Shown: one piece after another, positions 1,760-32,120 of the stretch
Numbering within the stretch: the first letter of the stretch is position 1
Layout: the number at the start of each line of letters is the position of its first letter
Assembly: GCA_039621445.1 (NCBI GenBank)
Contig: CP154954.1
Coordinates: 32,899,455 to 32,963,454 of the forward strand
Length of the DNA stretch: 64,000 bases
Origin: Euglena gracilis
Lineage: Eukaryota
Direction of reading: 5' to 3'
The notes under the pieces: model-generated
Told to the model about the DNA's origin: nothing
The model's input: the letters and a program-made list of their open reading frames with translations, nothing else
Databases searched by the model: none
Position numbers and translations under genes: made by a program

Positions 1760-4700
1760 CTAGAACGACCCGAGGCCGTCGGGGGGCCCCTGCAGGGCCT
1801 TGCGGCCGGTGGGCCGGGGCCCGGGGGCGGTCGGGGAGTGGCTGACCATCCGCTTCCCCAGCAGAGCGCTTCCCTGGTACGTGACGCAGCCCCCCGGTCC
1901 GAGGCGGCCCTTCGGCGTTCTGTGGACGAGAGGGGTTGGCCCGCAGCGTTTTGAGCTGGGGGTTGTTGTTGTCAATGGTTGCCATCAGGCATTATTTTTT
2001 TTAATAGCGCATTGGAATTTTGTGTGAGAAAAATAGACTTGGGCAAAATGAGGGCAAAATTGCAGCAGAAAATGTTTTAGTTTCTGGTCCTGGAGGTTTG
2101 ATCCCCCCATGTGTGTGTGGAAGCCACATTCTTAATGCCTCCCCCCCGGGGGGGGGGTGACCTGGGTCCGACGACCGGCAAGCACCTATAATTGACCCCC
2201 AGATTTTCGCCATTTTCGGCCATTTTCGGCCATTTTCGGCCACTTTTTTTCCCTATAAGTGCCTTAAAGTAAAGCTGCCTTAAAATTCTTTCATACCTAC
2301 AATGCATTTTGATCATTCAGTCAACATGCAAGCAGTCGTGACAAGCTAACGCATCCAAGGAGGTCCGTTTGGAATGAATGGGTGCTCAGGGATTAAAGAG
2401 GTCAAAGAGTTTTTTGTTGCAATATGCAAATGCAAGGTTTTGGGAATAGGCTTCTTTTTTCCTTCCAGAGAGGCTCTTGCCCACTTTGGTCATTTTTTGC
2501 TGCGGGTTCTTGGGACGCAACATGAGAGTGGTTGGCACATGACATATTAACCACAATGGTGGATGGCAACACCAAAACTGGTGCTTTTCTCTTCAAGCCT
2601 CTTGGCGTGGATGCTTTTCACAAACAACTTCCCCTGACCTATTCCAACTTGATACCCCAAACAACATTGTTTGATGGTGGCACTGTTAGATCCCATCCAC
2701 TTGTGTGCAATAAACCTGATGCAGGAATCACACCTTTAACGGAGAAAAAAACGCATCACATACTTTGCCTGGTTGCACCTTGTCACCACAATTTTCTGAA
2801 ACGTCACCAAAACCATTGGTTTTGGCCCAAATAACCCATTCGGAGGTGGTTCTTTGAGCAGCATGTGTTCCATGGTCAGGCACAATGGCAGGAGAATGGG
2901 GCCTGACTTCAAAGAAGCCTTGATATAAAAATTTCATCCGTCATGTTGAGACGATCACCCGTCTGGATGTGGCGAAATTGGGAGAAAATGCGCTCAGCTT
3001 GAGCGGCAGAACAAAAGCAAACAAACGTGTGATCGGCCTATCATGTTGAAATATTGACATCAAATGTGCTCACAACTGTCCAGTGTTTGCATCTTGTTCA
3101 ACATCGCATCTTATCCAACATCTACATCTTGTCCAACGTCTACATCCATTGCATCAGCAATCACTGCACCTTGACTGGTGTGTGCATCTTGTCCAATACC
3201 CGCATCTTGTCAAGATCTTAATCTTGACCAGTATCTGCATCCACTGCATCTTCTCCAGCATCTGCATCTTGTCCAATGTCTGCATCTTGTCCAGCATCTG
3301 CATCTTGTACAACATCTGCATCTTGTCCAATCTGCATCTTGTACAGCATCTGCATCTTGTACAACATCTGCATCTTGTCCAATGTCTGCATCTTGTTCAG
3401 CATCTGCATTCATTGCATCTTGTCCAGTATCTGCAACCACTGCATCCACTGGCTCCCAACCTAGCAAAATGACCATAGAAAGCCTAAAACTGACCGCAAA
3501 AGGCCCCAAAAAGCAACCAAAATGACCTTCAAATGGCTTCAAATGACCAAAATGGCTTCAAATAACCTAAACTTGCCCAAAAACGCCAACAATGTCCACA
3601 AAAAAAAATTGTGAAAAATAACCCAAAATCACCAAAATGTCGCAAAATGGCCAAAAATGCCATAAAATGTGCTCATATTGACCCAAATTAGCCCAATATT
3701 TGCCAAATCAGTGCAAAATATTCCAAAAATTAGCAAAAATTGATCCAAAATGGGGCCAAGAGGTGCAATACTGGAGATTTGTAGAGAAATTATCCCCAAA
3801 ATGGGTTTAATTCTTCAAAATATACCAAAAAATGCCAGCATCGCCCTTGTCACCAAAATGTTCTGAAATGCCATCAAAACATTCAGCTTTGGCCCAAATA
3901 ACCCTTTCGGAGGTGGTTCTTTGAGCAGCATGTGTTGCAGGGCCAGGCATAATAACAAAAGAAGAGAGGCTGCACAGAGATAAGAATCAGTCGCACTGAA
4001 AATTGCCCCTCAGGGAAAAAGAAACTGTTAGGCAAAAAAAATGGTAAAAATTTGCAACAATTTTTTTTCTCATTTTCGGCCATTTTCGGCCATTTTTACT
4101 ATAGGTGCTTGCCCGCGGCACGGGGGAAGTGCGCGGTTTTCAGGCAACCGGCAGTGGATTCAGGGAGGATAGGCACTTAATTTTTAGGAATAGGGTCAGG
4201 GCCGGATCGGTGCGCTAAAAATTGGTCCTATTTAGGGACAAAGTTATGCCAGAAGTTGGGTCACATTTTTAGGCCAAAAAACGTGCCCAAATTCAGCCAA
4301 AATTTGTCCGGAATGCGGCCTAACTTGGGCCTAAACCCCCCCAAAAAGTGCGCAGCGCCCTAATTAAGCGCAGTGCCCAAATAAGTGGCACCCCCAAGGG
4401 GTCCGAAACTACCTCCCTAAAAGTGCGCACCCCCCCAAAGGAGAAACCGCTGTAACATCGCCAGTGGGAAGGCAGGCACAATTATGCTGAAGGCCCCTGA
4501 CTCATCAGAACACAATCTGTTGCCTGTTGACTCGTTGCTTGACATCACAACAAGGGGAAGAGTTGAAAACAGAGTGTTAGAAACTAAGTATTCTGTGCTT
4601 GGCCCTAATAAGTGCGCAGTGTGCAACCTCTGGGAGTCCAGTCAGAATCCTAACCGTGTCCCAATCCAAAACCTCGACTTTCTCGAAAAGTCAGACCTGC

Positions 4701-6700
4701 GTCACCCCATATGACCCCCTCCTGGATGTTTTTGATGCCCCTCCCCCCCGGAGGGGCCATTAAGAATATGCCTGCCAATGATATTTGTACACAGAAAGCC
4801 TGAGGGGCATACAATGCTGGCAGGAGGGGTCAGGGAGGCTTGTTATTCTGTGGGTCAGCGGAATGTTTTTCTTCATTCATCTTGTACAAAAGGTTTCCTT
4901 GTTATATTCCCTCGCCCATTGAGCCACAACTTATTTTGATTGGCTGGCCAAAGAGATTCAATTGATCGTTCGAGGTACCAGATTACCAAGCTGAACCACC
5001 AAATATTTACCTTTCGCCTGTAATTTCTGGTACTTCCTTGATCGGTTTGCTTTTTACATGTTATCAGATATTACTGATGCTGCCACTCACCTCTTGGATG
5101 GCCACCAGGGATTACTTTTCAAGGCAATTTTTTTCAAATTTTAAGGCCTTTTAAAGCATTTCTTAAGGCTTTTTAAGGCATTTAAGGCATTTTACAGCGG
5201 TATTTTTCAGGGCAGTCAAAAGGTTGTCCAGGCACCAAACTAACGTTTTGGATTTTGCACGTTTCACAGAATCAAAAAAAGAGTCAAAATACACATTTCT
5301 TTTGAGATTTGGTTGGATAGACAATGTTCCAGCGATGCCAGAAATCATTTTTCTTCCCGAGTTGGCCTTTATTTGCTGAGATTTTGCAGTTTTCATTTTT
5401 GCTTGGTTGGGGAAAATTCTGGCAGACCAAATGTTTGAAGGCATTTCAAGGCCTTTCAAGGCTTTTTGACCAAAGTTTTTAAAACGCATTTCGAGGCTAC
5501 TACTTTGGCAGAAAACATCAATTTTTGACGATTTTTTTTTTCAGGAACTTTTCTGTTCATGGATGCCCACATTCTGCATTCTGCGTCCTCTTGGCGCTCC
5601 AGTTGGGGGGTTGGGTTGCATTGGCATATCAAAGCTGCCACAGGGGTTGTGTTCGTTTGTCTTCTTTTCAAATCGAACACCCACGGCAATGTGCTGTTGT
5701 ATCCGCCTCTCCCGAGGCTGCTCTGAGGCGCTCTGGGCCCACCTCCCACTTCGCTGCGGAGGGCGACCCGGGTGTCCTCCAGGGACGGCTCGGCGGCGGC
5801 CGGCGGAACTCCAAACGTGGCCGGGGCATCTCCCGGAGGCGCATGCCTGGTCATGGTCCGTGGCCGGTGTCCCACCGGAGGTCTGGCTCCGGTCGGCCGG
5901 GGAAGGCAGCCGAGCACGTCGGTCATTCGTTCCGAAACCGACCAATCCCGACGCTCACCCCAACGCCAATCCAACACACATACGCAGGGCGGTCCTTAAG
6001 CAAAAAAAAAAAAAAAAAATCCCGTCCCGGCACAGCCGAGAAATTTTTTTGAAAATCCATGACCGAAAAGTGGCCGTATTTTGCCCGAAACGGGTCGACT
6101 TCGGGAAAAAAAGTGATTCCTGGCACTTTTGGAACATCGCCCATCCGCCCATAGCGTCAAAAAATGCGTTTTTCGACTTTTTGGTTTTCGACCCCCGTTC
6201 AAGTCCCGGTCGATCCTTGGTCGGGGGGGCGGTCCTTAAGGGGCGGTCCTTAACGAAAAAAAAAAAAAAAAACTTCCCGTCCCTTATGGACCGCCCTGCA
6301 CATACGACCACTCATCTCAACAAATCCCAACACGAACCCCAGCCCTTCTGCCAAACATAATTGTCTCTCGCCACCCCCCTCCCCCCGCCCTGAAGTAAGC
6401 ACCGCCGGGGCGTAGTGGTCCGGCAGCGCCAGCTTGTCCCGGGGGGCATTCGCCACGCGCCGCCGCTGGTGGAGCCGCGTGTTCTGGGGCGAATGGGAGG
6501 CTGGGGGACGATACTGGGTGGCCCGGGTTTGCCAAGAAACCTCAAAATCCCCCTTTTGCCCAGTGAATTTTCAGTTAAATATGCCAGCACATTTTTTTTC
6601 TCACATTGAAAATGATCCTGGGGGGGTCATGGGTGGTGGGGTTCCCCCTTCAAAAAGAAAAAATGCTGGGTGTTAGGCCCGGGGAAAAATGCCCACTCGC

Positions 6701-6745
<45 letters not shown>

Positions 6746-9700
6746 AAGGGGGGGTAAGGGGGGGGGTAAGGGGGGGTAAGGGGGGGGTCGGGGGGGTAAG
6801 GGGGGGTAAGGGGGGGTAAGGGGGGGTAAGGGGGGGTAAGGGGGGGTGGGTAAGGGGGGGGTAAGGGGGTGTGGGGGGGGGGTTAGGGGGGGGCAAGGGG
6901 GGGAAAGGGGGGGGAAGGGGGGGGTAAGGGGGGGTAAGGGGTGGGTAAGGGGGGGTAAGGGGGGGTAAGGGGGGGTGGTAAGGGGGGGTAAGGGGGGGTA
7001 AGGGGGGGGGTAGGGGGGGGTGGTTAGGGGGTGGTAATGGAGAGGAATTGAGGTTGTTTTTGATCTGTATGCAGATTTGCAGTCCTCAAAAGAGGCCCAT
7101 ATACGCGTTTTTTCGCAGTAAACAATTTGCAATGCCAAACACTGGACACACAATCAGTTTGACCCACGGAAAGGATATTGTTATTTGAGTTCCAGGGGGG
7201 GGTTCGGGGGGGGGCGGAGCCCCCCCCCCGCCACTGCAAACGGTTGAGCAAAAAAGGAATTTGCTATGCCTACATTATGCGGAAAACCGAATTTTCAATG
7301 CCAAACACTGGACACAGAATTCAGACGCAAAATCAGTTTGACCCACGGAAAGGATATTGGTATGTGGGTTCCAGGGGGGGGTTCGGGGGGGGGCGGAGCC
7401 CCCCCCCGCCACTGCAAACGGTTGAGCACAAAAGGAATTTGCTATGCCTACATTATGCGGAAAACCGAATTTTCAATGCCAAACACTGGACACAGAATTC
7501 AGACGCAAAATCAGTTTGACCCACGGAAAGGATATTGTTATTTGGGTTCCAGGGGGGGGTTCGGGGGGGGGCGGAGCCCCCCCCCGCCACTGCAAACGGT
7601 TGAGCACAAAAGGAATTGGCTATGCCCATATGCTGCGCAAAACCGAATTTTCAATGCCAAACACTGGACACAGAATTCAGACGCAAAATCAGTTTGACCC
7701 ACGGAAAGGATATTGTTATTTGGGTTCCAGGGGGGGGTTCGGGGGGGGGGCGGAGCCCCCCCCCGCCACTGCAAACGGTTGAGCACAAAAGGAATTTGCT
7801 ATGCCTACATTATGCGGAAAACCGAATTTTCAATGCCAAACAATGGACACAGAATTCAGACGCAAAATCAGTTTGACCCACGGAAAGGTTACCACCAATT
7901 GGCCCTGAAGCAGTGAGGGGGGTAAGGGGGGGGGGTAAGGGGGGGTAAGGGGGGGGGGGTAAGGGGGGGTAAGGGGGGGGTAAGGGGGGGTAAGGGGGGG
8001 TAAGGGGGGGTAATGGGCGGTAAGGCCGGTAAGGGGGGGTAAGGGGGGGTAAGGGGGGGGGTAAGGGGGGGGGAAGGGGGGGTAAGGGGGGGTAAGGGGG
8101 GGGAAGGGGGGGGAAGGGGGGGTAAGGGGGGGGAAGGGGGTCGGGGGGGTAAGGGGGGGTAAGGGGGGGTAAGGGGGGGTAAGGGGGGGTAAGGGGTCCC
8201 CACTTCGTGCCATGTCTCGGAAATTGACTTTGAAAAAAATTCTGATTTTTAGCATTAATAGACCATTGCCACCCAAAGCATCGGAAAATATGTTTGTCGA
8301 CGTTATAATCTACTATTGCTTCGTCCTAACCCTGTTCAGGCCAGCCGCCAATGGGGTGGTCCTCAGTAAGAAAAAAATACCTTGTCCCCAATGGACCACC
8401 CTGATCCCCCCGGGGGGGTGACCCACCCACCAGGACGTGCCCTTAACGACCTCCTCCAGAAACCAGTGGGGGGAAAATAGGGGGGAAATGGGCAGGCCAT
8501 CTCAGATTTGGGAATAAAAATGGCAGCCACCTACCTTAGGCCCCCCGGGGGGGGGGGGGGCGATAGTCAGCCTGGGGGATGGTGGTACACGAGTTCCACC
8601 CTTTGGGGAGAATTTGGGCTATTTTTCAAGATAGGGTTAGGGTAACGGCCGGACTCTCAGAGAGCTTCCTGGCCTTTTTTGGGGGAATTTAATGCATTTC
8701 GGACCGAGGGAGAGACAATTTAGGTCGAATTCAAGCAGTTTTTAGGCGGATTGTGTTCTTAAAAACATTTCGAAATGGGGACCTGACTTCCAGCCTACCT
8801 TGGTCCCTAAAAATGGCCAATTTTTGGCGCATCGATCCTTACCCTAACCCTATTCCTGCCCCTTCCAAGGCTATTTGGGCAGGACCCAAAACCACGATGG
8901 ACCGATTGGCCACGTTCCCGAAAAATAATTTGTTGTCATGTGCTGTTCATTGATATTTGTAATAGAATTTAATGCTTTGATTCATCAAATAATGGAACAT
9001 TGTGGCATTTCAGTTCCTCCTGATTTCCCAAAAAGGTGCATTAATTTTCGCGTGTTTTCCCTTGAAAAGGGGTCGGGCAAAATCATTTGGACCGGACTTT
9101 TCGGCCTTCCCCCCCTGCAAAGTTATTTGGGCACGCAAAGCTTCAGGGCACTGCAAAGTTATTTGGGGGAGGTTCAATCACTCATTCTCCCCGAACCTGG
9201 CCACAATTGCCCGATTCCGGCGCATTTCCTGGGTGCTGCGGGGCCGAATTCCGGGGAAATGGGCACCGGGTACCTCCCCCCCCCCTGGACTGACTTTCGC
9301 CCACCCCCCAACCCCCACCCCACCTGCCATAAAAATATCATAATTTGCTGGTTCGCCCCTTTTTGCCGCTTTAATTTTTTCCCAGCCCGGCCAGCTGCAG
9401 ACGAGGGGGCCCCTATAGGGAGGTTGGCCAAGCCAATTTCCCCCTCATTTTCCGGCCAACGCCTCTGAGTTGCCCCTCTCAGGGGGCCCTGACATCATCC
9501 AATAAAGCAAATAAATCCATTACTGCCCTGCCGCCCGTTAGATAGAAACCAAATGCTTTTATGGGAAAAGGCTGAAAAACCATTTTAAAAATATTTCTCC
9601 TGAGCGCCGGGAAAAGGCTTCTGGCTGGCTGGACCCCCATGAGGAGCGTTGGAAGGATGCCTTATTCACATAATTGCTGTTTTTTTTCTTTCATCATTTG

Positions 9701-12700
9701 GTTACTATATAGGTTAAACCCCCCCCCAAATAATACCCCCCCCCCCAAATAATACTCCCCCCCCCTCGGGGTCCGACTTCGGACGCCGAAATAATACCCC
9801 CCCCCCCTGTTCTGGGCCGAAGGCCCGGATTTTTGACCTGAAAATGTCGGTAAAAACCACAATCTCTGACAACAAATTACGAAAAAAATCAATTTTTCTG
9901 GCTCATCTGACCTGCATAAAATGGTAAATTTCACAAGAAAGTGCAAAAAATGACCCCAAAGGGGGTTTTGGGTGCTATTTTGGGTTTTACGGGACTTCGA
10001 AAAATTTCGAAATTTTTGGAAAAATAACACCCCCCCCAAATAATACCCCCCCCCCCTCGGGCCGGGACTTCGGGCGAAAAAATAATACCCCGGGGGGTAT
10101 TATTTGGGGGGGGTTTACTTGTTATTATTAAGTTATAACTGGGTCATGATAAACAGGTTATATTCATCGACGCTGCTAATACCTCGTTGTGGGCACTTTA
10201 TGGAGGGAGTTTGCTTTTCGCCACCAATTCAAGACCCGGATTACACCGGGGGCTTAATGCTTTAAAGCATCAATAAGGCGGCGTCCCCACACCTGTTCGG
10301 AGTAGCGGCCGTTGGGGGTCGCCTCGGGGCGGAGGTACTCCAGCGGTGAGGCCAGGTTGCGGTACTCGGGGCCCTTCCGCTTCAGCGGCACGCCGGCCAG
10401 TGCGCTGAACTCCTCGTCGAAGTGCGTCCCCAGCGAGGAGAAGAGCGGGTCCTGTACCTTGACGGAGTACCTGCAGGGGAATTGTGCATGGTGACCCCAG
10501 AGACAACCATGGGAGTGCTGGGGGGGGGGGGTCAATACTTCCAGGAACTGATGGCGAAAATCTGACTCCTAGAAATACCCCAACAAATACCCATTTTTTA
10601 GTTTGAAATCCCTTACAATGGTTTAAAAGATTTAGCACCTTAAATGGTGCTGGTAACATGAAAAGCAAAATTTTTTTGGCGATAAAACCCACAAAACCGT
10701 CAAATGGGGGGGGATCATTTTGCTGGTCGGTCAGCCTGGGGGAGGGAGGCTTAATGGATGCTTATGGACAGGGATGGGATGGCGGCGGTTCCGGCCCACT
10801 GACAGCTGCAAATGGCAGTCGATGGCGCCACGACGAGTGGAAGCCTCACGTGTCTGCCAGGGCGGTCCTTAAGCAAATAAAAAAAACAAACTCCGCTGTC
10901 CCAGCACAATCAATGCAAAATCCACCAGAAAATGGGAAAAGAAATTGGGAATTTTCGGCAAGAACAGGTCGATATCGGGGAAAAAAGTGATTCCTGGGGT
11001 CCTTGGACCATCGCCCATCCACCCAAATCATCAAAAGATGTGTGTTTGAACATTTTAATTTTGGACCCTGTTCAAGTCCCAGTCTGGTTCTTGGCTGGCC
11101 CTTTGGCCGAAGGGGGGGGGCGGTCCTTAAGAAAATAATAAAAAAAACTTTCCTGTCCCTTAATGACCGCCCTGGTGTCTGCGCCGGCAGCAGTGGGGGC
11201 AGCAGGGCAGGCAGGCATTATTTCTTAAGGTGCCTTAAAATCTCAAAAAACTCCCAAAAACCTTGAAATATTTCGAAATTTTCGTTTTAAAAACAGTGCC
11301 TGGTCAATGCTTCCAGGAACTATGGTCAAAATTTGACCCCTAAAAAAATACAAATGCCCTATTTTTTATTTGTAAACTGTCAGCGTGGTTCAAAAAATAG
11401 CATTCTAAATGGTGGTTGGTCACACAGAATGCCAAAAAAACCTTTTTTTTTGGGAGTGTGGCGGGCGGGGTGGGGCGGGGCGGGGCGGCACTTGATGGAG
11501 CCCGCCATGCGGTCCAGCCGCTCCTGCATCGACCGGTCCAGGGTCGCCTGGCTGCCGGATGCGCCGAGCGATGCGGCGGCCGGCGCGGCGCCGTCCCCGC
11601 GACTGCGGCCGCGCGACGCGCCCATGGCGTGGGCGGGGCTGGCCTCGACGCGGGCGAGGATCTCCGACTGGATCGGGCGGGGCCCGGCGTCTGTTTCGCA
11701 CCCCCTGGGGGGGGGCAGAGGTGTGCCTGGTGCTGTGGGGGGGTTGGCCCATACCAGGGGCCTAGACAATCTTCCAGAAAATTGGCCATTTTCGGGCCCC
11801 CAGCGTCTTCCACGCCGGGGTGTGTGTGTGTGTGTGTGTGTGTGTGTTGTGAGCGGGTTGTGTTGTGTGTGTGTGTGTGTGTGTTGTGTGTTGTGTTTGT
11901 GTGTTGTTTGTGTGTTGTGTGTGTTGTGTGTGTGTTGCGTGTGTGTGTGTTGTGTGTGTGTTATGTGTGTGTGTTGTGTGTGTTGTGTGTGTGTTGTGTG
12001 TGTGTGTTGTGTGGGTGTGTGTGTTGTGTTGTGTGTGTGTTGTGTTGTGTGTGTGTGTGTGTGTGTGTGCTATAGCTTAACCCACCCCAAAGCCAAATGC
12101 CCACCGAGGTGTGAGGGCGTTGAAGTGCCCTCCCTCCATATTGTTGGTGGGTGGTCGTAAAAAGAAGCCTGGGCGGTACACCGACTGCGCCCAACCCTCG
12201 TGCAGCGCCTCCTTCCTCCTCTGTTGCTGATCATCCAGCTGCGGTGGGTGGGACGACAGGGTCCGGAGGCAGTGCAAAACAACAACTACGGGGGGGGTCA
12301 ATGTTGCGTCCTGGCGGTGAAAAAGTTTGCTGGAAAACGGTCATTTTTGGGGGCCAAATGCCTTCGGTGCTGGGGGCACGGTGTTACCCTCCCACTCTGC
12401 AAACCGGACTCCTGCGGTCGAAAATGCCTTCCCACTGCCCACCCCGCCCCCCGGGGGGGCCCTTCTTTCAAAAGAAGTTTGCACAACACACACACACACA
12501 ACACAGTGACACAATTGGTGTACTTGGTGTATGTCCTCTAGGTTGTTGACCATGGTCAGTGGGTGTGCATAAATGATATCACTTACACTTTTGACAAAAA
12601 TGACGGGGAAAAATGACGGAAAATTTTCGATTTTGGAAAGGGTGGGCGATGAGCCAGGGGGTGTGAGGAATCAATTTTCTTCCGATGTCGATCTATCTGT

Positions 12701-13663
12701 TCTTGCCGAAAAATGCCAATTTTCCTTTCCCATTTTTTGTGGATTTTTCATTGAATGTGCTGGGACAGCGGAGTTTTTTTTTTTACTTTCTTATGGACCG
12801 CCCTGGTAAAAAATTAAAATTTCCATCATTAATCTCACCCCAAATTGACCATGTGTCATATCCCCGACTTTGTGTGTGAAACTTGACTACGTGCTGCCAC
12901 CAAAAGACGTACCCCCCCCTCATTTACACCGATGGTTCGGTATGTCACTTTCACACTGCTTGAAATCCCTGGGGGGGTCTGTATAAATGGGAGGTCGGTA
13001 TAAATGGGTCAAGGTGCCCAACTGGGGCGGGGGGGGGGGGACGAGGCGACGTGCATTTGTCCTCTCTCCCAGTTTGTCATCCAACCCCAATCAGCAATAA
13101 TCCATCTGTTCACATTTCACCAAAAATAAACGCTAGCGTGAGTCTAAGTGTTTTTTTTTGTGTTTTCTGAGACCTCTCCATGCTTTACCTTGGTGGACCG
13201 GATGCAAGAGAGGGGGGCCGGTATAAATCTATTTCTTCTTCTTTCCTTCACAGCGGTCGGTATAAACAAGGGGAGTTAGTATGAATGGGGGTGCGTCTAA
13301 ATGGGAAGGGTTAGAAAGAGTACGGGGGGAAAATGCCAGGCAAAATTATGGGCAAATTAAATAATTTTTAAACATTCCCATCATTTCTGTTTTCCCGTAA
13401 TTTTCGGACCGAAGTTGCGCCTGTGTGCACTCAGCGCATCGAATCAAGAACACTTTCCGTGTCAGCGGCCCGCCTCCCGCTTTCCGTGTCAGCAGCCACA
13501 CCTCCTTCACCTCCTGCCGGAGGTCCCGCACGAAGCCGGTCTGGTCCGCCATGAACTTCGCGAAGCGCTCCTCGAAGTCCCGGTCCTCCGCCTCCCGCTT
13601 CGCCTGCCGGCGCTGCTCCGCGCTCTGCTTCGCCGACGCCAGCTGCGCTGCGAACTCCGTGTC
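1760..13663 (-). CDS. FAM228-like hypothetical protein (multi-exon; first exon probably ~14000-14111)
   Basis: Exons 13502-13663, 12175-12238, 11492-11678, 10293-10470, ~6403-6483, 5743-~5953, 2351-2384 and 1760-1919 (TAG), with high GC3 and mostly GT-AG phase-consistent junctions. RRKEALHEGWAQSVYRPIQSEI resembles the FAM228 RKE.L...W...V..P.Q..I motif as recalled. Confidence 0.65.
2910..3020 (-). pseudogene. hAT transposase C-terminal dimerisation-domain remnant
   Basis: Minus frame reads CSAAQAERIFSQFRHIQTGDRLNMTDEIFISRLL*, which fits the S.A..ER.FS....I....R..M/L motif. Confidence 0.55.
3085..3450. repeat. 18-bp minisatellite (catctgcatcttgtccaa)n
   Basis: About 20 degenerate units. Confidence 0.9.
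5985..6298. mobile_element. hAT-type MITE with perfect 8-bp TSD
   Basis: TIR cagggcggtcc / ggaccgccctg. TSD cacatacg at 5977-5984 and 6299-6306. Confidence 0.92.
6703..7037 (+). repeat. Poly-G plus (TAAGGGGGGG)n minisatellite
   Basis: Read directly from the sequence. Confidence 0.95.
7130..7888. repeat. Tandem repeat, ~178-bp unit, ~4.3 copies
   Basis: caatgccaaacactggacac recurs at ~7130, 7296, 7474, 7652 and (one mismatch) 7831. The first unit is slightly shorter. Confidence 0.95.
7916..8196 (+). repeat. (TAAGGGGGGG)n minisatellite
   Basis: Read directly from the sequence. Confidence 0.95.
10858..11174. mobile_element. hAT-type MITE, same family as 5985-6298, perfect 8-bp TSD
   Basis: TIR cagggcggtc / gaccgccctg. 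TSD gtgtctgc at 10850-10857 and 11175-11182. Partial or interrupted relatives at ~12600-12805, ~16160-16420, 22426-~23248 and ~49318-49620. Confidence 0.92.
11679..12174 (-). other. Non-conventional intron in the FAM228-like gene
   Basis: Borders C|gccCAGgc ... gcCGGgcccc|GC pair in the canonical register with one mismatch. Removal gives WAQSVYRPIQ. Confidence 0.65.
11818..12069. repeat. (GT)n/(GTT) degenerate microsatellite
   Basis: Read directly. Similar tracts at 14150-14340, 24574-24650, 25450-25875 and 49075-49213. Confidence 0.95.
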
Positions 13664-14262
13664 CTGCGGCCACCCCGCCGCGGTCAGGCCGGGCGGCCAT
13701 TTTGTGTGCCGGCCTCGCCATTTCGGGTTTTTTGGGAAACGGGACCACCTTCGCCATCAAAACCAAAAAATGCAAACCAAAAGCCCCGGGGTCTCCCCCA
13801 GCGTATGGGACGTTTGTGTCCCGCCAAGCACTGCTGCACCGCCGCATCGGTGTTGGTCAGTTGGTGTACTGATGCTGGAACCGGCAGTGCCGAAAATCGA
13901 TCTGTGGGCAGCGGGGGGGGGGGGGTTGGTAAAGATGCCAACGTGTCCGCAGGTGTGGGGGGTGATTGGGCGGGTCGGTGGAGCGGCGGGGTGGGGGGGC
14001 GTGGAGCCGGAGGCGGATGGCCTCTCGCTGGCGTTCCTCCTGCAGCTCCCGGAAAGACGCCTCACAGCCCTCCCTTCCAGCCGGCCAGCCGGTCTGGGGT
14101 ACAATACACATTTCGTCATGATGTGGTTGGATAAATGCCAAAAGGGCGATTGGGTGTGTGTGATTGGGTGTGTGTGATTGGGTGTGTGTGTGTGTGTGTG
14201 TTTGTCCGTGTGTGTTTGTGCGTGCGTTTGCGTGCATGTGTGTCTGTGTGCGTGTATTTGCG

Positions 14263-14294
<32 letters not shown>

Positions 14295-17200
14295 CTCCCG
14301 TCTGTATTTGTGTGTGTGCATGTGTGCCACACACACATATCTACATACTTCTCCCCATACTCCTTCCCAGCACAACTTACCCAGCCAGTTCTTTCCCTCT
14401 CTTGCCAACTTTATCATAACAACAGGGGACTTGCTCCAATTGTCACCGTTTCCGTTCGGGCTGCGGTGATCATCATGGAAAAGTCACAATGATGTCACAA
14501 ACATCGTGTCACAAACATCGTAATTTAAAGCGCAGTGAACGGAAAAGCAAATGACACAAGGTCGAATTTCACACAAACTCTGAAGAGGAGAAACCCCAGC
14601 TTCAGGCTGGGAGGGGGATGACCCCTCCACCATTTCAGCGTTTTGAGTTGGACAAACCTGTGGTCCAAGGAAGGGAGGCCTGGGCCGGGGACTACAGCTT
14701 CGACGAAGGGGCTCAGCTGCAGGCTGTTCTCAGGGACACACACATGCCGACCAGCACCACACATTTTGGCTTCCGCCACAACCTCGATTCAAAAAAATTG
14801 CGACAACCGAACTGGAACTGAAGAGGGCAACGTGACTCCCCAAATATGGAAGCTGGTGTTGGATTTGTCGATCAGGTGTAGAATCCCTACCCATATGCTC
14901 ATTTAAATTTGGTTCCAATTTGCTCATTCAATTTGTATGGTAGCATTTGGAAAGGCGTCCATTACAGAGCAAATTGGACGCCAAATTAAATGAGCAAGGG
15001 GAGGGGAGATGCATGGTTCTGGATACCCCTGGGAAAAAACTGGTGCGAAGCGAAAAAATTCTTGGGCTCATATGCCCCATAATGGTGGTTTCTTGCAAAA
15101 ACAAAAACAAAATCCAACGCATGACTTCTCCGGCTCAAAATGCAAATTTGGTTCCTTGGGGGTCCCAGAACCCACTCAGCCCAAAAGGCGGGGGGGGGGG
15201 TGATCTGAGCCCTCCTCCCCCTGTACAAAACAACGCTCCATTAACACCCTGCGCATAACAGCATGACAATGGATAAAAAACCTTTTTTTTTTGCGCTGGA
15301 AAATGTTATAAATGTGTATTTGATTGGAGAGGGTTGAACTTTTGTGAAGCTCTGAGGCTTCCCGAAATATGCAAATACAAAACATACTGGAGCTTTTCTA
15401 CTTCAAAAATGGCGCTAGAATGGCATTTAATTGAAAGTGATCTTCCTTTGCTCTAAAAACCTCCTCACTTAAATCCCCCCAGGGGTTATAAGAACCTGTT
15501 TGGTGGTCGGTCCGGGGGGGCGGGGGGGGGGTAAGGGGGGGTGGTTATAAATTGAGCCTTGGTGTGTAATGGGAAGAGGTTCAAAATCACCCCCAATTCT
15601 TGCCCTGGGGGGGGCAAACAAGGTATTTTGGGTAACTTCATGGTTCTTTTTGCCAAAAACTGGGAGGTTGGCATGCCCACCACACCTGTTTTTTTGGACA
15701 CTGAGGAGTTTAGCATATTTTGTCTATTGCTTCTTCATCGTTCTTTCCCTCTGGGTGGGGTTGTAAATCACGGTTTGGTAATTGGGCCGGGGGGGGTTAT
15801 AAATGGGTTGATCCCCGAACAAGCCTGATCCACAAACTCCGCATTGCTGACCACAGAAAGATATCCCGCTGGGTCATGGACATGACATGCCATACTGAGC
15901 ACAACAATGCAACGGAATACGACAGAAACACAAATGCTGCAGAGAAAATGAGAAAGAGACGTGCTGTTTGGAGAGGAGGTGAAGAAAAATTGCAAGAGAA
16001 CCCATTTCTGGATGCTCTTTCAGAACGACGGTGAAAGAAAAGCAGTGGGAACACACAGCCAACAGCAGTCGATTGTCTGGCGATGGCAATGCAATGGCGA
16101 CCTTCGTTGGGTCATGACGTGAGTGCGGTATGGTTTCTGTTTGAGCCAAGTTGGGGCCTCCAGCCTGTTAACAGAAAAGAAACTCCGCTGTCCTAGCAGA
16201 TTGAACTAAAATCCCCAAGGAAATGGGCAAGAGTTCGATATCCCTTGGCAAAAAACCAGTTCACATCGGGGAACGATTGTAGCAATTTTGGACCATCGTC
16301 CATCCGCCGAAATCATCAAAAGAATACAAGTTTCGATTTGCTTTAATTTTCGAACCCGCTCGAGCCCCGGAGTGGCCATTGGCCGTTGGATAGTAAAAAG
16401 AAAAGTCCTGCCCCTTACGGTGGGGGAGGTGTGAATTCAGGCTGGACATTTGTGACGTCGCTTTTCTCGAGGGCTTTGGGCATTTCAGAGGAATTCTTGG
16501 GCTGGGGAAATGCTCCTCGGTCAACAAGTGATCATCTCCAACTGGCCAAAGCCTTTGGTGGTTTGTGTAGCTGCGTGAACAGGACGGCTTTGGGAGGTAT
16601 CTGTGACTGCAAGAGGTCTGTTGAATTCGAGACTGCAACCATTCAACACAGCGTCAGAAACAATGAAGCGAACTCTCGAATCTCAATGCGAAGAGCCAAG
16701 CTAGGAAGGGAGGAAGCAAGAGGAAAAGGCACATGACACACAATGATAATGGGACAGCACAGGGTCAAGATGAGGGTCGCTTCTTTTCCGTTGGATGCTG
16801 TTGGAAGGCCCAGACAATGCCATGGGAAAGGCACCAAGCTGGCAGGCCAAGCAACCAAGGACACTTTGAAACACTGCATGAACAAGAATGCACACCGACC
16901 CTCCAGGCAGAAGCCCTCTCGCCATTTTGGTCCGCAGCTGGGCGTGTGGTAAAGGCGGTTGTCCTTGCAAACGACAGGGCTCTGGCCAGGGATGGGCGTT
17001 CCAGTGCTCCCGTCCCCAATCGAAAAAAAAAAAGACGACCCTGAGAAGGACAGACCGGACGGCAGCGCAGGGAGGGGGTCTGTGTCGTCGTGGGCCGGCG
17101 GGATCGCTAAATGGGAGTGCCGAAGAGGGGCCCTGAGGCCCCCAACAGCACCGCCCCTTTGGGGAGGGATCGATGGATGGAGCCAAGCGATCCGTTCCAA

Positions 17201-17454
17201 ATGACTGAAGTCAGATAACCTAATAAAAATTTTTTTATGACACGGCCGGCTTCCGCATGGCTCGCTCAAAAAAGGGACAGTGTTTGTGTATTTTGTGCCC
17301 CTAAACACCCCAACCCACCGACCCAACCGCACCGTGTATGCTTCAATGGCACCCTCTCCCACGGGGACACTTTTACAAGGCAAAAGTCAACCGTGAAGCC
17401 TGATGACTCGAGAGGAGCGGTGGCTGGCGCTGCGACGTGGTATTGGCGGTCCAC

Positions 17455-20400
17455 CTTGTTGAGGAGCCGGTGGCAGGCCGCGGTGAGGAGGAGGGGGCCC
17501 TGCCCGGCCCGGCCTGCCTCCTGGGCCGCCTGGGGGAAACAGCAAAAGAACACACTTGTCGATTGTGCTTCAATTCCGACCCCGTTTGAGCCCCGGATCG
17601 GCCATTGGCTGTGGGATAGTTTAAAAACAAGGAGGCCTGCCCCTTAAGGAAGGTGGGGGGGTGTGAGTTGAGTCTGGGGCTAGACATTTGTGACGTTGCT
17701 TCAGGGATAGGTGGGGGGGAAGCTCACCGCCCCTCGACCAAAAGCAAGCCATGCATTGGCACGACACTCCGGAAGATGGCACCAGATGCAGTGCCTGGAT
17801 TTGAACACAGAACGTCACACCCCACGCTAATGTACCCGCCCCCCCCCCCTGGGTAATTGTCGCGCGACAAATCGGGCAGCACGAAGGGGGGGTGACAATT
17901 TCCCGGGGTGAAAATTTGGCCGGCACAGAGGGGGGTGACAATTGCCCGGGGGCGTCAATTGCCCGGGGGCGTCAATTGCCCGGGGGCGTCAATTGCCCGG
18001 GGGCGTCAATTGCCACCCATGTCGGCCACATTAAATCCAAATGACCAAGAACACCATCTGAAACACCAGTGAACATGCAAAAATGCAGCTATGGTTGTGA
18101 TATTGTGTAGAGCATTTGGTATGTGACATTTCTCCGCACGTTGTACCGAAATAGAGGATCAATCGAGTCGTGTCGGCGAAAAGAAAGTTCACAAACATCT
18201 TCTGTGGGGGGGGTGACAATTGGGCAGCACGGACGGGGGTGACAATTTCCCGGGGTGACAAATTGGCCGGCACAGACAGGGGTGACAATTGCCCGGGGGC
18301 GTCAATCGCCCGGGGGGGGGGGCGGGTAAGCAAAAATGCCACATGCGCGTGCAGCAATTTGCAAATAGGAAATAGCACATGGCATGTGCCGCACGGCAGA
18401 TGCACTGCGGCGCATCTGCTGGCGCCACCGTGACGCCGCGTCGCCTGCGGGCCGGCACACCTCCTGCGCGCCGGCCACCGGGGGGCCCAGGAGGCCCAGC
18501 AGGAGGGCCTCGTGCCCCCGCCCGCACACCGTGGAGAACGCCCCGCCGGCGTCCACCCCGACGCACAGCGGATGGGGCCAGGGCAACCATTGGCAGGGGG
18601 CCTGGGTGGAAGAGTCAGCCAGAGGGGGGGGGGCTGGCTGATCCGGACGTCCCCCACAGACACCAGTGTGGCTCTGGGTAACAGGTGTGGGACTTGGCAG
18701 CCTCCTGGGCGTTGGGGGGGGGGGAAGAGGGTGCGAGTGCACAGGCGAAGAAAACAAAGGGGGCACAGGGTGCGGGACTGATCATAACCCTGTGGATGCA
18801 TATGCGGCGTATATGTATCGATATATGTATATATACATGTATAGATATGTATCTATATATATATCTAGATATCTAGATATATGTATATATGTATGTATGT
18901 GTCGGTCTAACAAGGATGAAATCTTGCCAAAGCAAATGGGGGATTTCTTGGACCCCCACCGGGAGGGGGAGCATACATTCGGCCGGCAGCTGGGCTGGAC
19001 CTGGCCAACGGTTTTCAGGGACCCCAAACCTTCCTCGCACCACTTTGAGCATTTTTTTTTTTTGCACAAATTCAGAAAATATCAGCTGGAATCAGCCAAT
19101 CGACTTTTTATCAACCCCCCCCCCCTCTGAGAAGGGGGCTTCGGTTAATGGGCCAATGGATAGCTGTTGGCTGGGGAAAAAAAACGGGGTGTGGGATTGC
19201 TGGATGATCCCTCCGTGGGTCCCAGCCAGCAGAAGCAGATGGTCTGCTTTAAGCTGTAGCATATAAAAAAAGCTGAAATTGCAAGCAATTTTGTTTGAAG
19301 AACGAAGAAGAAATTACAAAAGAAAAGGGGTCCGGGAATGGCGCATTTCATGAGCCTGTCTGGAAAAATCTGGGTGAATAAATGAATGACATAACTGTTG
19401 AATCCAAACCCACCCCAGAGGGTCTCATGACCCCCTCCAGTTACACTAAGGCCTTTTGTCTGTTATGGCAAGCGCTATCCAACAGTGTCCCCCTGAAAGG
19501 GTCCCATACCCACCCTGTAGTGGAGCTGGGTCTGGTACATTATCAAGGGGGGCATGGTACACACGGGCAAAGATGAGAAATTTTATCTGTGAATAAGAAT
19601 GACAATACCTGCAAGATGGATACTGCACACTCCACTGCCTCATTGGCAGACGCTGTTGGGAACGTCACCAGCATCCCATTCCCTGGAGAGAATGAAAGGG
19701 GGAGGTGCAAGCATCCAACCACTACCAGGGAACACACTTACTGCCTCTGACCGGGGTGACCCCACGGATGACATTGTGGCGACTACCTTGGCAGCGGGGA
19801 AATAATTTCTTCCAATCTTTAAAACCCCATACAATCAGAACCCCTCAAAGACCCTCCCGGAATGAGGTGCTGCAACCTGTTGATGCACTGGGTTACTTTG
19901 TGAGGCACTCCGCAAAAGCATATGCATTGAACGTATGGGCAATATGGCCATTGATTGACAATAAAAAAATATAAAAATTAATTACCAGTTCTATCCTGCC
20001 CGTTTCTCGTGTTGTGTGAGTCGGACTAGCATGAGCAGGGAAACCCATTGCCAAAGCACGGCCGCAGCAGCCGAGGAGCCGTACCAATCCACGGGTAGCA
20101 GGTGCCGCCCACGGCTGCCACCCGTCGGTGGACCACGCCCATCAAGGCGCCGATGCTGTGGGCGACCGAGGCGGCTGGGCTGTTGGAGACGGAGCCAGCC
20201 TAAAGGTGCGGGGTGGCAGGGGCTGGGGGCGAAACATGATCAAATGGGGCAGCCCACAACCCCCTCCCCCCTGGATGATCTCTGGGCAGGTCAACAAAGA
20301 CAGAGATAATCAGGTCTATGGAGACAACCTAACCCCCCCCCCCGGGAAACTGTCACCTGACAGGTTGGCCGGTATCGGGGGCCCTGATGTATGTATGTAC

Positions 20401-23400
20401 GTACATACGTACGTACGTATGTATGTATGTATGTATGCATGCATGTATGTATGTATGTATGTATGTATGTATGTATGTATGTATGTATGTATGTATGTAT
20501 GTATGTATGTATGTATGTATGTATGTATGTATGTATGTATGTATGTATGTATGCATGCATGCATGTATGTATGTGTGCATGCATGCATATATGTATGTAC
20601 GTATGTGTGTATGTATGTGTGTATGTATGTATGCATGTATGTATGTACGTATGTAAGTAGGTATATATGAATGTATGTATGTATGCATGTATGTATGTAT
20701 GTATGTCTGTATATATGTATATATGTATATATGTGTGTATGTATGTGTGTACGTATGTATGTATGTATGTATGTATGTATGTATGTATGTATGTATGTAT
20801 GTATGTATGTACGTATGTATGTATGTATGTATGTATGTATGTATGTATGTATGTATGTATGTATGTATGTATGTATGTATGTATGTATGTATTGTATGTA
20901 TGTATGTGTGCATGCATGCATGTATGTATGTACGTATGTGAGTATGTATGTATGTATGTATGTATGCATGCATGTATGTATGTACGTATGTACGCATGTA
21001 TGTATGAATGTATGTATGTATGCATGTATGTATGTATGCATGTCTGTATATATGTATATATGTATGTAGGTATGAATGTATGCATGCATGCATGTATGTA
21101 TGTATGTATGTATGTATGTATGCGTGAATGTATGTATGTATGTATGCATGTATGTGTGTACGTACATACGTACGTATGTAAATATGTATGTATGTATGTA
21201 CCTCCCCCCCCCTCAGCCCAATGAATGTATGTATGTATGTATGTATGTATGTATGTATGTATGTATGTATGTATGTATGTATGTATGTATGTATGTATGT
21301 ATGTATGTATGTATGTATGTATGTATGTATGCATGTATGTATGTATGTATGTATGCATGCATGAATGTATGCATGCATGTATGTATGCATGTATGTATGT
21401 ATGTATGTATGTGTGTACTCTACGAATGTGCAGTTTTACATCCATACAAATATACACTTATGTGAATGTGCAATTATAAATACATCCAAATTCATCCCAT
21501 TGGGATCCTTTGTCCCTTTTCCCAAGTCAGTGGTCAGAGAGCAGGGCAGGCACTGCCCAGCACACCAGCTGCCTGAGGGACCCCACGGTGAGGGGCTGGA
21601 CCCCGATGAACGCCACCACCAGCTCTGCAGCGGTCCCTTGCTCTGTCAGGGGCAGGCTGGCTGTGCCCCTGGAGACTCCGAATGAATGCGGATGTGACCA
21701 ATCAAAGGATGACAGGTAAAAAAAATGCAAAGATGTTCCATGAAATGGCTATGATCGGGACAACTATCAACCAATCACAGAGATGAATTCTGCAATTTTG
21801 CATTTTTTTGCAATTTTTTTGGATCAATGTTTGAAAGCTGCCACATTTTTGACAAATTTTATCGAAAATTGTGTCACAGAGGACTTTGGGTCATCCTGGG
21901 GTGTTTCATTTCGAGAATTCCACTTTATCATCCCCCTGACTTATAACCCACCCTTTTGGCTGACTAGCCAAACCACATCACAACCATATCGGCTTTAAAT
22001 GGGTGGGCTTTAATGTTGCATTTTTTTTCCAACTCAATCCGCAGAGGAACCAAAATTTTAGTCCCAGCCACAATTTTTTTTTAGAACTTTCATCCCCCCC
22101 CTCCAAACCCTACTGCGGCACGATGAAAATTAAGCAAAAATTGCCGAAACTTGTGACTTTGGAAACAAAAAAACATCCAAATTTTTTCGGGTTGTCTGGG
22201 GCAAAAAGCCGTCAGAGGCCCTTCGAGAAGGGGGCACCCTTGGGCAGGGTTGAGGCAACACTCATCCTGGTCAGGGGGTCGATTCCATGAGCCAGCCGAT
22301 GGGTGACGACCGGTGGAGCGTACCGCTCCGCCACGCCGACTGCCTCCTGCGGCGGCAACCAGGGGTGCAGAGGGGAGGTCTGGTGGTGGCGGGGGGGGGG
22401 GGCAGGTCACGTAGGAGGTCTGGGGCAGGGCGGTCCTTGAGCAAAAAAAAAGAGGTATTGCACAAATTGGCGCCCTCACTGGCAATTTCCCCCCACCCCC
22501 ACCCCCACTGATGCGCACGGATGCCATTTTTTCAAAGATGGCAAAAAATGGGTGATTTTGGCTGTGCCACGGGGGGGGGGGGGGCTGCAACCCACCGGAC
22601 CCCCCCTTCCCCCCGCCCCCCACTAACCCTCACTCAACCCTCCTCCTTTTTGAAAACTTCTCATTCTTCGATAAACTTCTCATTCTTCGATGTTTTCCCT
22701 CTGAAAAATGGTCTAAAGTGTGAAATCTTTGGCTGTGGGGGGATGGGACGCGCCCCCCCCCCCCAAATAACAATCAAAGTGCCGTTTTCGGACTTTTTTG
22801 TGAAAGAGGTTTTAACTGTTTTCTTTTTGACCCCACAAATGACCCCAATGAAATGCAAACACATTTCACAGCAATTCGAAAAATGCACACAAGAACAGGA
22901 AATAATTTTTCCGGTTACCCCCCCCACTCACTAAGGCTGGTGGGAGCGCAATATATGAAAAAAAAAACACACTAAACTTTCTGGTGGTCTAAACCAGCAC
23001 ATTGCCAAAAATCCACCGGGAAATTTTGGCAAAAATTGGTCGACTTTGGGCAAATAAAATTCTTTCTGGTGCCCTTGGGCCGGAGCCAAGCAACCCAAAA
23101 CATCAAATAAAAATGTGTTTTATTCTTCGACTCTTAATTTTCGACCCCGTTCGGCGCACGGACTGACCATTGGCTGGGCCTCAAGCCTAAGGGCAGTCCT
23201 TCAGAGTTGGTGCTTAAAAAGAGCATCCTGTCCCTTATGGACCATCTGGTGGTATTCGGTTGATCAATGCAGGGATTTTGAGACGGCGGACAAATCAAAG
23301 AACAAATCAAAAAGATATCCAAACAGCAATCCAATTTGGCCTAAATGCCTAAATGTCCCGCCCCCTGGCTTGAAGCCTGCCTCCCTCTGCAGCGGGCACA

Positions 23401-24572
23401 TTGACCATTCAAACTACATGAAATTGGGGGGGGGAATTACGCACACACACCAGGAGGCTGCCGAGCAGTGGGGACAGCTGGACGCCGTAGTCCTCATCGA
23501 TCCCGTCGACGGACTTTACGGACAATGCGTGGCCACCGAACCTGGCCAAGACCAGGGGCCACAGCACACGAGACCCTCGCTCCAAAACGACTCAGTTTTT
23601 ACCAAACCGTCGTGGCTCTCAGATTGAAGACATATTCGCACACTTTTACACAATACGAATGCAAATCTCACTCCATCCCAGGGGAAAATGTGGGTTGGAC
23701 CTCTCAGTTTCCTGAACGGAAAGAACAAAAGAAACCAAACCAACGCCATTATGGGCTCCTACAAATATGTATTCAGCACCACACCAGCAGGGGACAACAT
23801 TTATCATTGTGGAAATAGAAAAATGTTGATGAGAACGGCTCACACAAGCTCTCCCTCTGCCTCCTCCTCCACCGTCCCACCTCTTCCTCCACACAACCTA
23901 TACCGGCAATTATTTTTGAGCCTTTCCACTCTCAATGTCTGGGCCTCGGATGGCGTTCTGTAATGGTCAGCACATTCGCCACAAAAAAAAACTCACGCCC
24001 AACGTCACTGCAAATGAAAATTTCCTCTGAAGGAAGGGAAAGATATAAAACAATAACGTCCAGAGACACACACCTCCGGGTCGAAATGGTCTCTCTCTGC
24101 GAGAAAAGAGATATACTGCTGTCCGGGGGGGGGGGGTCACAAATCCTGGTCGACACCGAGGAGGGGGAGGGAGGAACAATTCAAAAAATAATTATAATTC
24201 GCATCAGGAATTAAAGGAACAGAGCAAGGATTGGTGCAGGCTGGTGGTCTGGAGGAAAGAGGCTGGAAATCAGAATTGCTGGCAGTCTTTAAAACAAAAA
24301 AGTGAAAATGAAAAATCCGAGTCTCTTAAAGACCGCCCTCCAAAAGCAAGGTATGAAAATTACAAAAAATTGAAGACAGAAGCAACTGGATTTCCTTTAA
24401 TATGCCAAGGAAGAACCTTGGAGGAAAATGGGAATTGAGCAGGAGTTTGCTGAATTGACTCTCGTCCACGTGTCTTGGTGGTTTGGATTGCCACCCCCCA
24501 GCAACACCCGAGGCCTCCCCCACTGTCCCTGGGCTCCAGGCTTCCCTGGCACCCACCCACCCACCCACCCGC

Positions 24573-24653
<81 letters not shown>

Positions 24654-25665
24654 GCAGCAGCGACACGCGGTGGTGCCGGGGGTCCCGAGCGATCTTGGCG
24701 TACAGCTCGTCCACTGCCGCCTCCGGCCCCTCTGCGGGGAGTGCCGGACAGGAGAGGAAATAATTCCAACGGTTTTCTGGGACACTCAAGGACTTAGCAA
24801 TGCTGGCGGGGGGATGACTGCCATCTACACATACTCACTGCGTCTGAATTTTGGAGGACATTATTTTGCATGCTTGAAGTGAGCAAGAAGGTATTTTAGG
24901 GTGAATTCCCGGAAGGTTTTTTGACTGGGAGGGGTGCATTGTATTATTACTTAAAAAATTGGGAGACTCATGCCGCCTTCAAATGTGGGGCTTAGTGACA
25001 ACCTCAGGCATGACTGCTCCAGAGCGCATTCACCAAACGCTGTTGCGCCTGGAGCTGTCCATGGTGGCATGTGGGGGTACAGCACTGCACACCAATGACT
25101 TGGAAGAAAGCGCCGGGCTGCGGGATGGAAAGCAGGCAGCTGGTGAGGCGCTTCTTCTGGTTGGCAACGCGGCCGTACAGCCCGATGTAAGCCACCTGCA
25201 TGTGTGTGTGTGTGTGTGTGTGTGGTGCGTGTGTGCGTGTTGCGTGCGTGTGTGCGTGCTCGGCACAGATGCCAATGCAACAATGGCTGTGGCATATGGG
25301 GTGAGTGGGGTAGGGGGATCCCCAGTCTGCTGTCCCATCTCCTCAATTCTGCCATACCACCTCACCAAAAGCACATATGCCAGGCAGGGAACCAGCAAAC
25401 TCACCAAAACTGTGGGACACCAAAAGACCAGAAATCGGGGGGGGTGTAAATGTTGTGCACTTATGTGCGTGCGTTGTGTGTGCGTACGCGCGTGTGTTGC
25501 GTGTGTATGAGTGTATGCGCTGTTGTGTGCGTTTGTGAATTGTAAATGTGTGTGTTGTGTTTGTGTGTTGTGTTTGTGCTGCACGTTGTGTGCGTGCGTG
25601 TGTCTGTGTGTTTGCATGTTGTAAATTTGTGTGAGTTGTGCTGTTGTTGTAGATGTTGTTGCTGT

Positions 25666-25736
<71 letters not shown>

Positions 25737-29781: not shown

Positions 29782-29950
29782 CCCGGGGCCTCACACCGCC
29801 CGGAGGAAAAAGACGGCACACGGCATGCGACGCACTGCGGGTTTGGGTGGCACGGGTTGTGTTGGAGAATTGAACTGTCATTGGGGCGCTCCAGAAGAAA
29901 AAATCGGGGGCCATTTTCTATGCTCCCAGGCTTAACCTCCCACACTGGTA

Positions 29951-31817: not shown

Positions 31818-32045
31818 TCACCGCACGTGCCTCAGGACGGCAAAGTGGTCCTCCAGTGAGGGGCGGCGGCCGGCGAAGTGATAATCGCACGTGGAGCGGA
31901 ATGCGTCGCCGTGCAGCGCATGCAGCGTGCGGCAGAACTGCTCCAGCTCGCCCCTCGCCGCCAGCCTTCGCTTTGCAACACCCCATTCCCCCGGATGTAA
32001 ACCCTCCCCCCAAATAAAGCCCCCCCTGGGCGGGGACTTCAGGCA

Positions 32046-32120
<75 letters not shown>

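Follow-up and report, generated by a model that had tools for sequence, protein, structure and literature searches.

The locus analyzed here raises the question whether the spacing rule of the nonconventional introns of Euglena, in which 3 nt and 5 nt lie outside the paired CAG and CTG ends, corresponds to the 8-bp target-site duplication (TSD) of a MITE, in which case an element inserted into an exon could be removed from the RNA as an intron. The window, i.e. the whole analyzed stretch of 64,000 nucleotides of E. gracilis DNA (contig CP154954.1), is eukaryotic DNA in which short, GC-rich exons on the minus strand alternate with long introns of a style indicative of Euglena, and simple repeats are numerous. 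Three MITEs within it had been named in the original prediction as candidate introners.

CAG...CTG elements and the splicing code

The three elements, M1 (5985-6298, 314 nt), M2 (10858-11174, 317 nt; 10850-11182 with its duplications) and M3 (26092-26484, 393 nt; 26084-26492 with its duplications), begin with CAG and end with CTG, and the complementarity of their terminal 12-mers is 11/12, 11/12 and 12/12, respectively. All of them are short and non-coding and carry terminal inverted repeats (TIRs) and a TSD, as is proper to MITEs; an ORF running across M1 gave no match in Pfam. The 8-bp duplication of M1 (left copy 5977-5984, identical to the right copy 6299-6306) is bounded at exactly 8 nt, and in folding the ends of the element pair with a probability of 1.0. 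Comparison of the flanking 8-mers gave 8/8 matches for M1 and M2 and 7/8 for M3. The CAG and CTG ends foreseen for all three elements were therefore found, along with perfect TSDs at M1 and M2, but the TSD of M3 is imperfect.

M1 and M2 are 72% identical over their full length and belong to one family: the likeness begins at CAG and ends at CTG, nothing is common outside, and each is flanked by its own, locally duplicated 8-mer. M3 represents a second family, which has only partial relatives. The M1 family is evidently of very large size, with a sharply defined end: in the DNA run X1, 85 contigs diverge from the window exactly behind 6298, and the contig depth summed over M1, which is not a copy number, goes up to 9e5, compared with about 180 for unique bins. 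Decayed or truncated pieces of this family were observed at 12666-12805, 16175-16370, 22426, 42439-42566, 49317-49602 and 63305; those at 22426 and 63305 are isolated ends located close to exon borders. Further very high-copy repeats occupy 3560-4110, 4330-4660 and 5300-5352, and contigs break off sharply at 4111, 5308 and 5352. A 178-bp tandem array (4.2 copies, 95%) is bracketed by G-rich GGGGGGGTAA arrays, the blocks being 6703-7021, 7145-7888 and 7929-8196.

The window contains 844 CAG...CTG pairs with an end complementarity of at least 9/12. Exact flanking repeats were found in three of them at k=8, and in none at k=6, 7 or 9-12; permuting the flanks, as a control for the excess at k=8, produced one match in total over 20 rounds. 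Other CAG...CTG pairs flanked by exact 8-mers (e.g. 33067-33353, 37581-37756 and 41626-42075) were rejected, their ends being complementary at 7/12 positions or fewer; two of these also sit in local tandem repeats. Pairs starting with CAT are swamped by microsatellites in the window. A search for the M1 end motif in viral contigs gave 10 chance matches, none of them accompanied by a corresponding far end and TSD; prokaryote genomes gave 22 matches to the motif, and metagenome contigs gave none.

According to Nomura et al. 2025 (PMC12501133), Euglenid nonconventional introns follow the code 5'-N3CDG-/-CH'GN5-6|R. In the knock-in tests of that work CAG must stand exactly 3 nt past the donor and CTG 5 (or 6) nt before the acceptor, the donor spacer being strictly 3 nt and the best acceptor spacer 5 nt; splicing also depends on pairing of the ends, and a purine is preferred as the first letter past the intron. 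The same paper reports that such introns make up 71.8% of the introns of E. agilis and states that their origin is unclear. The code places CAG at +4..+6 and CTG at -8..-6. If the TSD bases are numbered T1 to T8, each copy is cut between T5 and T6, so that removal of the element plus 8 nt re-creates the target. When M1 was spliced in silico by the N3/N5 rule, the empty site was recovered on either strand, in agreement with the original prediction that these offsets would remove the element and exactly one TSD. The +4/-6 register of the introns of the window, which was derived from open frames and end pairing rather than from spliced reads, also agrees with the published code.

Removal in either orientation had been predicted as well, and this holds as arithmetic on both strands. 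The first base of the downstream exon is however T6, so the claim is conditional on a purine, the preferred letter, at this base. M1 has a purine at T6 in both orientations, M3 on the minus strand only, and M2 in neither; among 1718 exonic 8-mers, the fraction with a purine at T6 is 0.48 per orientation. By the same arithmetic, the 6-nt spacer would permit clean removal of a 9-bp TSD; a 7-bp TSD would not be removed cleanly.

The terminal motif of hAT elements is YARNG and that of P elements CANRG; hAT ends are typically CAGGG-like, and tandem subterminal copies of the end motif are a hAT trait. M1, M2 and M3 begin with CAGGG, which fits both motifs alike, and M1 contains tandem subterminal copies of its end motif at 6226-6253. 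The hAT target preference NTNNNNAN is not fitted by M1, and is fitted on one side only by M2, M3 and I4, the element described below. That the mobilizing enzyme was a transposase of the P superfamily, or a mixture of hAT and P types, rather than a hAT transposase, is somewhat unlikely: published intron ends vary among CAG, CAT and CAA, which would suit CANRG, whereas the CAGGG start of M1-M3 and the subterminal repeats of M1 resemble hAT elements. TSDs of 8 bp, at GT....AC targets, are generated by hobo as well as by the P element (PMC3276498); the length of the duplication, which fits the hAT label of the original prediction, also fits the P superfamily. Transposases of neither type were seen, none being present in the 50 of the 161 long ORFs of the window that were scanned.

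Probable location of the MITEs within host introns

M1 lies within an intron, about 550 nt long, of a minus-strand gene and is not itself flanked by exons in the mRNA. The best-guess borders of this host intron, based on an in-frame candidate and on RNA depth, are 5860-6407 on the minus strand, and define an intron of the CGG/CCG type. In both RNA runs the depth, which ranges between 3 and 7 in the exon bins 5749-5857 and 6403-6511, drops to 0 over 5858-5966 and to 0.2-0.7 over 6294-6402. RNA reads located on M1 mostly continue unlike the window, and therefore come from other copies of the family. Among the 15 joints listed around M1, out of 136, there is neither a spliced RNA joint nor one belonging to an empty M1 site, all coming from DNA contigs of repeats. 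On the transcribed strand M1 has, taken as an intron, the arrangement N3-CAG...CTG-N5, paired ends and a purine next. Within the host intron, a stretch starting with CAG at 6392 pairs over 8 bases with the far end of M1 and provides an in-frame cryptic acceptor at 5979, of which RNA depth shows no use.

Judging from the exon maps, M2 probably occupies the gap separating two predicted exons (near 10290-10470 and 11490-11680, respectively), and M3 is probably part of the predicted nonconventional intron 26050-27163. One exon of the gene hosting M1 and M2, used in a protein search, gave no match. The suggestion that the three named MITEs themselves act as introns was not confirmed: M1 is excluded by RNA depth, and M2 and M3 appear to be located inside predicted introns.

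In both DNA runs, one contig each stops aligning at 5976, the base preceding the left duplication of M1, when contig joints are placed at the leftmost possible position. The letters left over past this point, 77 and 83 respectively, would end at 6375 and 6381, a C-rich run. These contig ends make probable the existence of an empty M1 allele, lacking the element and one 8-mer. Allele depths of about 60 and 120, recorded in run X1 at 4173-4335 and 6485-6700, suggest three chromosome copies, with the window corresponding to the single-copy haplotype.

A predicted intron with an 8-bp duplication and its published counterparts

The real support that the window offers to the introner idea is not M1-M3 but the predicted nonconventional intron 21648-22272 (minus strand, 625 nt), which equals an element, I4 (21653-22269, 617 nt, CAG...CTG, ends 9/12 complementary), plus one perfect 8-bp duplication. 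On the transcribed strand, the upstream copy of the duplication (22270-22277) is made up of 5 exonic and 3 intronic nt, and the identical downstream copy (21645-21652) of 5 intronic and 3 exonic nt; the repeat is bounded at exactly 8 nt. The intron conforms to the splicing code and restores the frame between two predicted exons, an upstream one (22273-22346, minus strand) encoding the linker before a degenerate cyclase domain, and a downstream one (21566-21647, minus strand), which starts with a purine and whose far border is uncertain. Among the 11 code-compatible junctions of this exon pair it has the best end pairing, the repeat being unused in the ranking. The end duplex amounts to -17 to -19 kcal/mol; in a fold of the whole intron the ends pair with a probability of 0.2, and they are unpaired in the minimum-energy fold. 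From this build, we infer that the intron arose by insertion of an element making an 8-bp TSD. No second copy of I4 was found in the window: I4 is intron-like and single there, while the M1 family is repeated and has no copy in the window that is an intron.

The gene involved (17450-29800, minus strand, multi-exon) looks like a BLUF sensor joined to a degenerate cyclase without the first catalytic Asp, the BLUF identity being assigned by eye and the cyclase linker by profile. Searches of Pfam and PDB with its single exons gave no BLUF match, and PDB searches with single exons and stop-read-through stretches gave no relevant chain. The product of splicing at 21648-22272 gives a gapless alignment to a profile built from 9 bacterial cyclase-linker segments, with 8.8 bits, the best score of 7 variants; the variant sharing the donor, with the acceptor 6 nt further, scores 7.6 bits. 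The 9 segments were chosen for the linker motif from 24 bacterial ones, and some of the bacterial cyclases had been retrieved through 5 prokaryote genomes matching the M1 end motif; a first, unselected profile of 14 segments gave no signal for I4. The spacing between Tyr and Phe is 29 in the product, and ranges between 28 and 30 in all of the 14 bacterial cyclases, out of 24, with a comparable motif. One bacterial linker of the profile aligns at equal length to the bPAC and OaPAC chains. A search of Pfam with 8 exons of the window matched only C2orf69: a multi-exon, C2orf69-like gene lies at 31780-43400 (minus strand), one exon of which matches PF10561 (E=6.5e-5).

Repeats in the same register were found by eye in three published introns. 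In the strain-specific gapC intron 4 of E. agilis, the youngest of the three, for which eight-nucleotide direct repeats have been described (Milanowski 2016, PMC4770533), inspection of Table S3 shows that the repeat consists of 5 exonic plus 3 intronic nt at one end and of 5 intronic plus 3 exonic nt at the other, and that it abuts paired CAT...ATG ends. Perfect 5+3 repeats are also present in tubB intron 12 of L. spirogyroides, with CAG...CTG ends, and in tubB intron 13 of M. pyrum, with CAT...ATG ends (2014 supplement, PMC3935182); in the latter a pyrimidine follows the intron and the repeat extends 2 nt further. Two of these three perfect cases begin with CAT, not CAG. Overall, perfect 5+3 repeats occur in 3 of 76 published rows at 23 positions (P <= 2.4e-5, with n set at 77), in a manual tally in which rows of one position are not independent. 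Second gene copies, two intermediate E. gracilis tubA-5 rows and three hsp90 intron-9 rows were left out; in Table S2 of PMC4770533 the 5' ends given for hsp90 intron 9 (WI, PO, WA) do not differ from the intron-8 ones, a probable copying error.

At the six non-junction positions, the manual tally gave 29/54 matches in single-species introns (P=6e-5 versus 0.28), 21/66 in widely shared introns and 83/306 in old E. agilis homologues, the last two values being at chance; matches at these positions thus fall with intron age. At the junctions, a purine is reported in 51/55 cases at the intron start and in 55/55 at the exon start (PMC4770533). An 8-bp TSD would by itself make the two junctions alike in their Y|R letters; these letters persist in old introns, and selection is therefore implied as well. 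When the target was examined by eye at 22 published positions, base 1 was G in 12, base 2 a pyrimidine in 20, base 7 A in 14 and base 8 C in 15. This palindromic motif is a lead only, as codon periodicity could produce it.

Origin of the introns and comparison with known systems

We consider it likely that CAG...CTG elements with 8-bp TSDs, when they land in exons, are spliced without leaving a scar and become new nonconventional introns. A cut-and-paste transposase, probably of the hAT or P type, would leave CAG...CTG repeats within 8-bp duplications; Euglena would cut between TSD bases 5 and 6, so that the element and 8 nt leave, and, given a purine at T6, an exonic insertion would immediately become an intron. 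Those halves of the duplication that lie inside the intron would then drift, until old introns keep only CAG/CTG and the pairing. M1, M2 and M3 would be donors-in-waiting which landed in introns, and M1 would lend itself to splicing as a nested intron. The proposal that MITEs serve as introners is in this form supported by the predicted intron at I4 and by the three published ones, but not by the elements originally named.

A broader reading, to which we give slightly less than an even chance, is that the second splicing code of Euglena, which applies to most of its introns, was left behind by a single kind of DNA transposon. The stem would correspond to the TIR and the 3+5 spacers to one 8-bp TSD; the conserved junction letters, Y|R on both sides of the intron and RAC opening the next exon, would represent a duplicated target of the GT....AC type. 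The RNA machine would have evolved to undo hAT/P insertions precisely. The outcome would be a still-active, polymorphic intron factory, in which nested M1-like copies are spliced as introns within introns.

The direction of cause may also be reversed, the 3/5 spacing being structural in the splicing enzyme, and elements with CAG ends and 8-bp TSDs having fitted it and been tolerated; we regard this as somewhat unlikely. Elements would then add introns without having founded the code, a reading which is compatible with our preferred explanation in all but the direction of cause. It accommodates the efficient splicing of artificial 50-nt introns devoid of duplication, the tolerance of the acceptor for 5 or 6 nt and the many intron ends which are CGG-CCG, CTG-CAG or unclassified (PMC12501133), as well as the fact that most introns bear no trace of a duplication (the 83/306 above). 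It needs, however, a coincidence between the geometry of the enzyme and the TSD length of abundant resident elements, as the strict 3-nt donor spacer and the best 5-nt acceptor spacer sum to 8.

It is improbable that the repeat at I4 is due to chance, with the gene using GT-AG there and the window showing ordinary intronic MITEs only. Frequencies were evaluated by listing, for 31 pairs of exon cores picked by hand, all junctions that keep the frame and comply with the code. In the 5+3 register, 8/8 matches occur in 2 of the resulting 144 candidates (I4 and 54643-54942), and 6 or 7 matches in none; in controls with shifted registers 8/8 occurs in 1/1728, corresponding to a chance of about 1e-3 per candidate. 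The second candidate, 54643-54942, pairs weakly, has intron-like surroundings and is probably a chance match, one among the 144. Four other inferred nonconventional introns of the window have 2-4 of 8 letters matching. A further predicted intron (13666-13996, minus strand) has 11 perfect end pairs and CAC...GTG ends, outside the published CDG/CHG code. In-frame GT-AG alternatives do exist at I4 (e.g. 22237/21643), but their products are longer by 10 or 16 residues and can no longer be aligned to the cyclases without gaps, two of them scoring at most 2.3 bits on the same profile.

Repair of double-strand breaks, proposed for gapC intron 4 (PMC4770533), would make new introns flanked by direct repeats and the MITEs mere bystanders, and could account for I4 being without a second copy in the window. 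It predicts, however, no fixed length of 8 nt abutting inverted repeats, while the repeat measures 8 nt in three of the four perfect cases (I4, gapC 4 and tubB 12) and abuts paired ends in all four, and free elements of the same build are abundant; break repair is accordingly judged quite improbable. Least credible of all is that excised intron RNAs, reported to form circles (PMC11282704), re-insert by reverse splicing or a retro route and that free MITE-like copies are spread introns, as such copies would carry the 3+5 spacer bases of the intron itself, whereas M1 and M2 share only the stretch from CAG to CTG and have different local 8-mers.

In line with the general remark of the original prediction on a transposon origin, descent of nonconventional introns from MITEs was proposed by Milanowski et al. 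2014 (PMC3935182), and the idea is found again in PMC12501133, PMC6221363 and PMC12621601; a review (Mikina et al. 2024, PMC11282704) mentions TIRs and TSD-like repeats. In the openly accessible texts and tables searched, neither the 3+5=8 identity nor a superfamily was found. The identity makes the general MITE hypothesis sharply testable: a sliding window at -5..+3 and an 8-nt peak in young introns are expected. A purine bias at TSD base 6, empty alleles retaining one 8-mer and a transposase producing 8-bp TSDs with matching ends are further predictions. The published 8-nt repeat of gapC intron 4, earlier put down to break repair, can be read anew. If the explanation is true, Euglena would have an introner system signalled by a TIR stem rather than by GT-AG, which also suggests scar-free insertion cassettes for this organism.

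Published Euglenid nonconventional introns resemble those described here in having paired ends, a purine next and direct repeats at the junctions, including one case of 8 nt. The difference is that, in the accessible parts of PMC12501133, PMC3935182 and PMC4770533, the 3+5 spacers are not equated with one 8-bp TSD, and the 8-nt case is ascribed to break repair. hAT MITEs (Ac/Ds, hobo, Hermes) and P elements have, like M1-M3, 8-bp TSDs (8 bp in hobo and in the P element, PMC3276498) and short TIRs starting with CA; for M1-M3, assignment to either superfamily is tentative. The introner elements of Micromonas, Aureococcus, Fritillaria and Amoebophrya are likewise non-autonomous TIR elements, removed from the RNA without a scar, whose TSD helps to define the junction (PMC11282704). 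Their TSDs are short, 3 nt in Micromonas and 3-5 nt in Amoebophrya, and they use the spliceosome or a modified spliceosome (PMC11282704). In Euglena, by contrast, both cuts would fall inside 8-bp TSD copies, and the TIR stem itself would be the splice signal.
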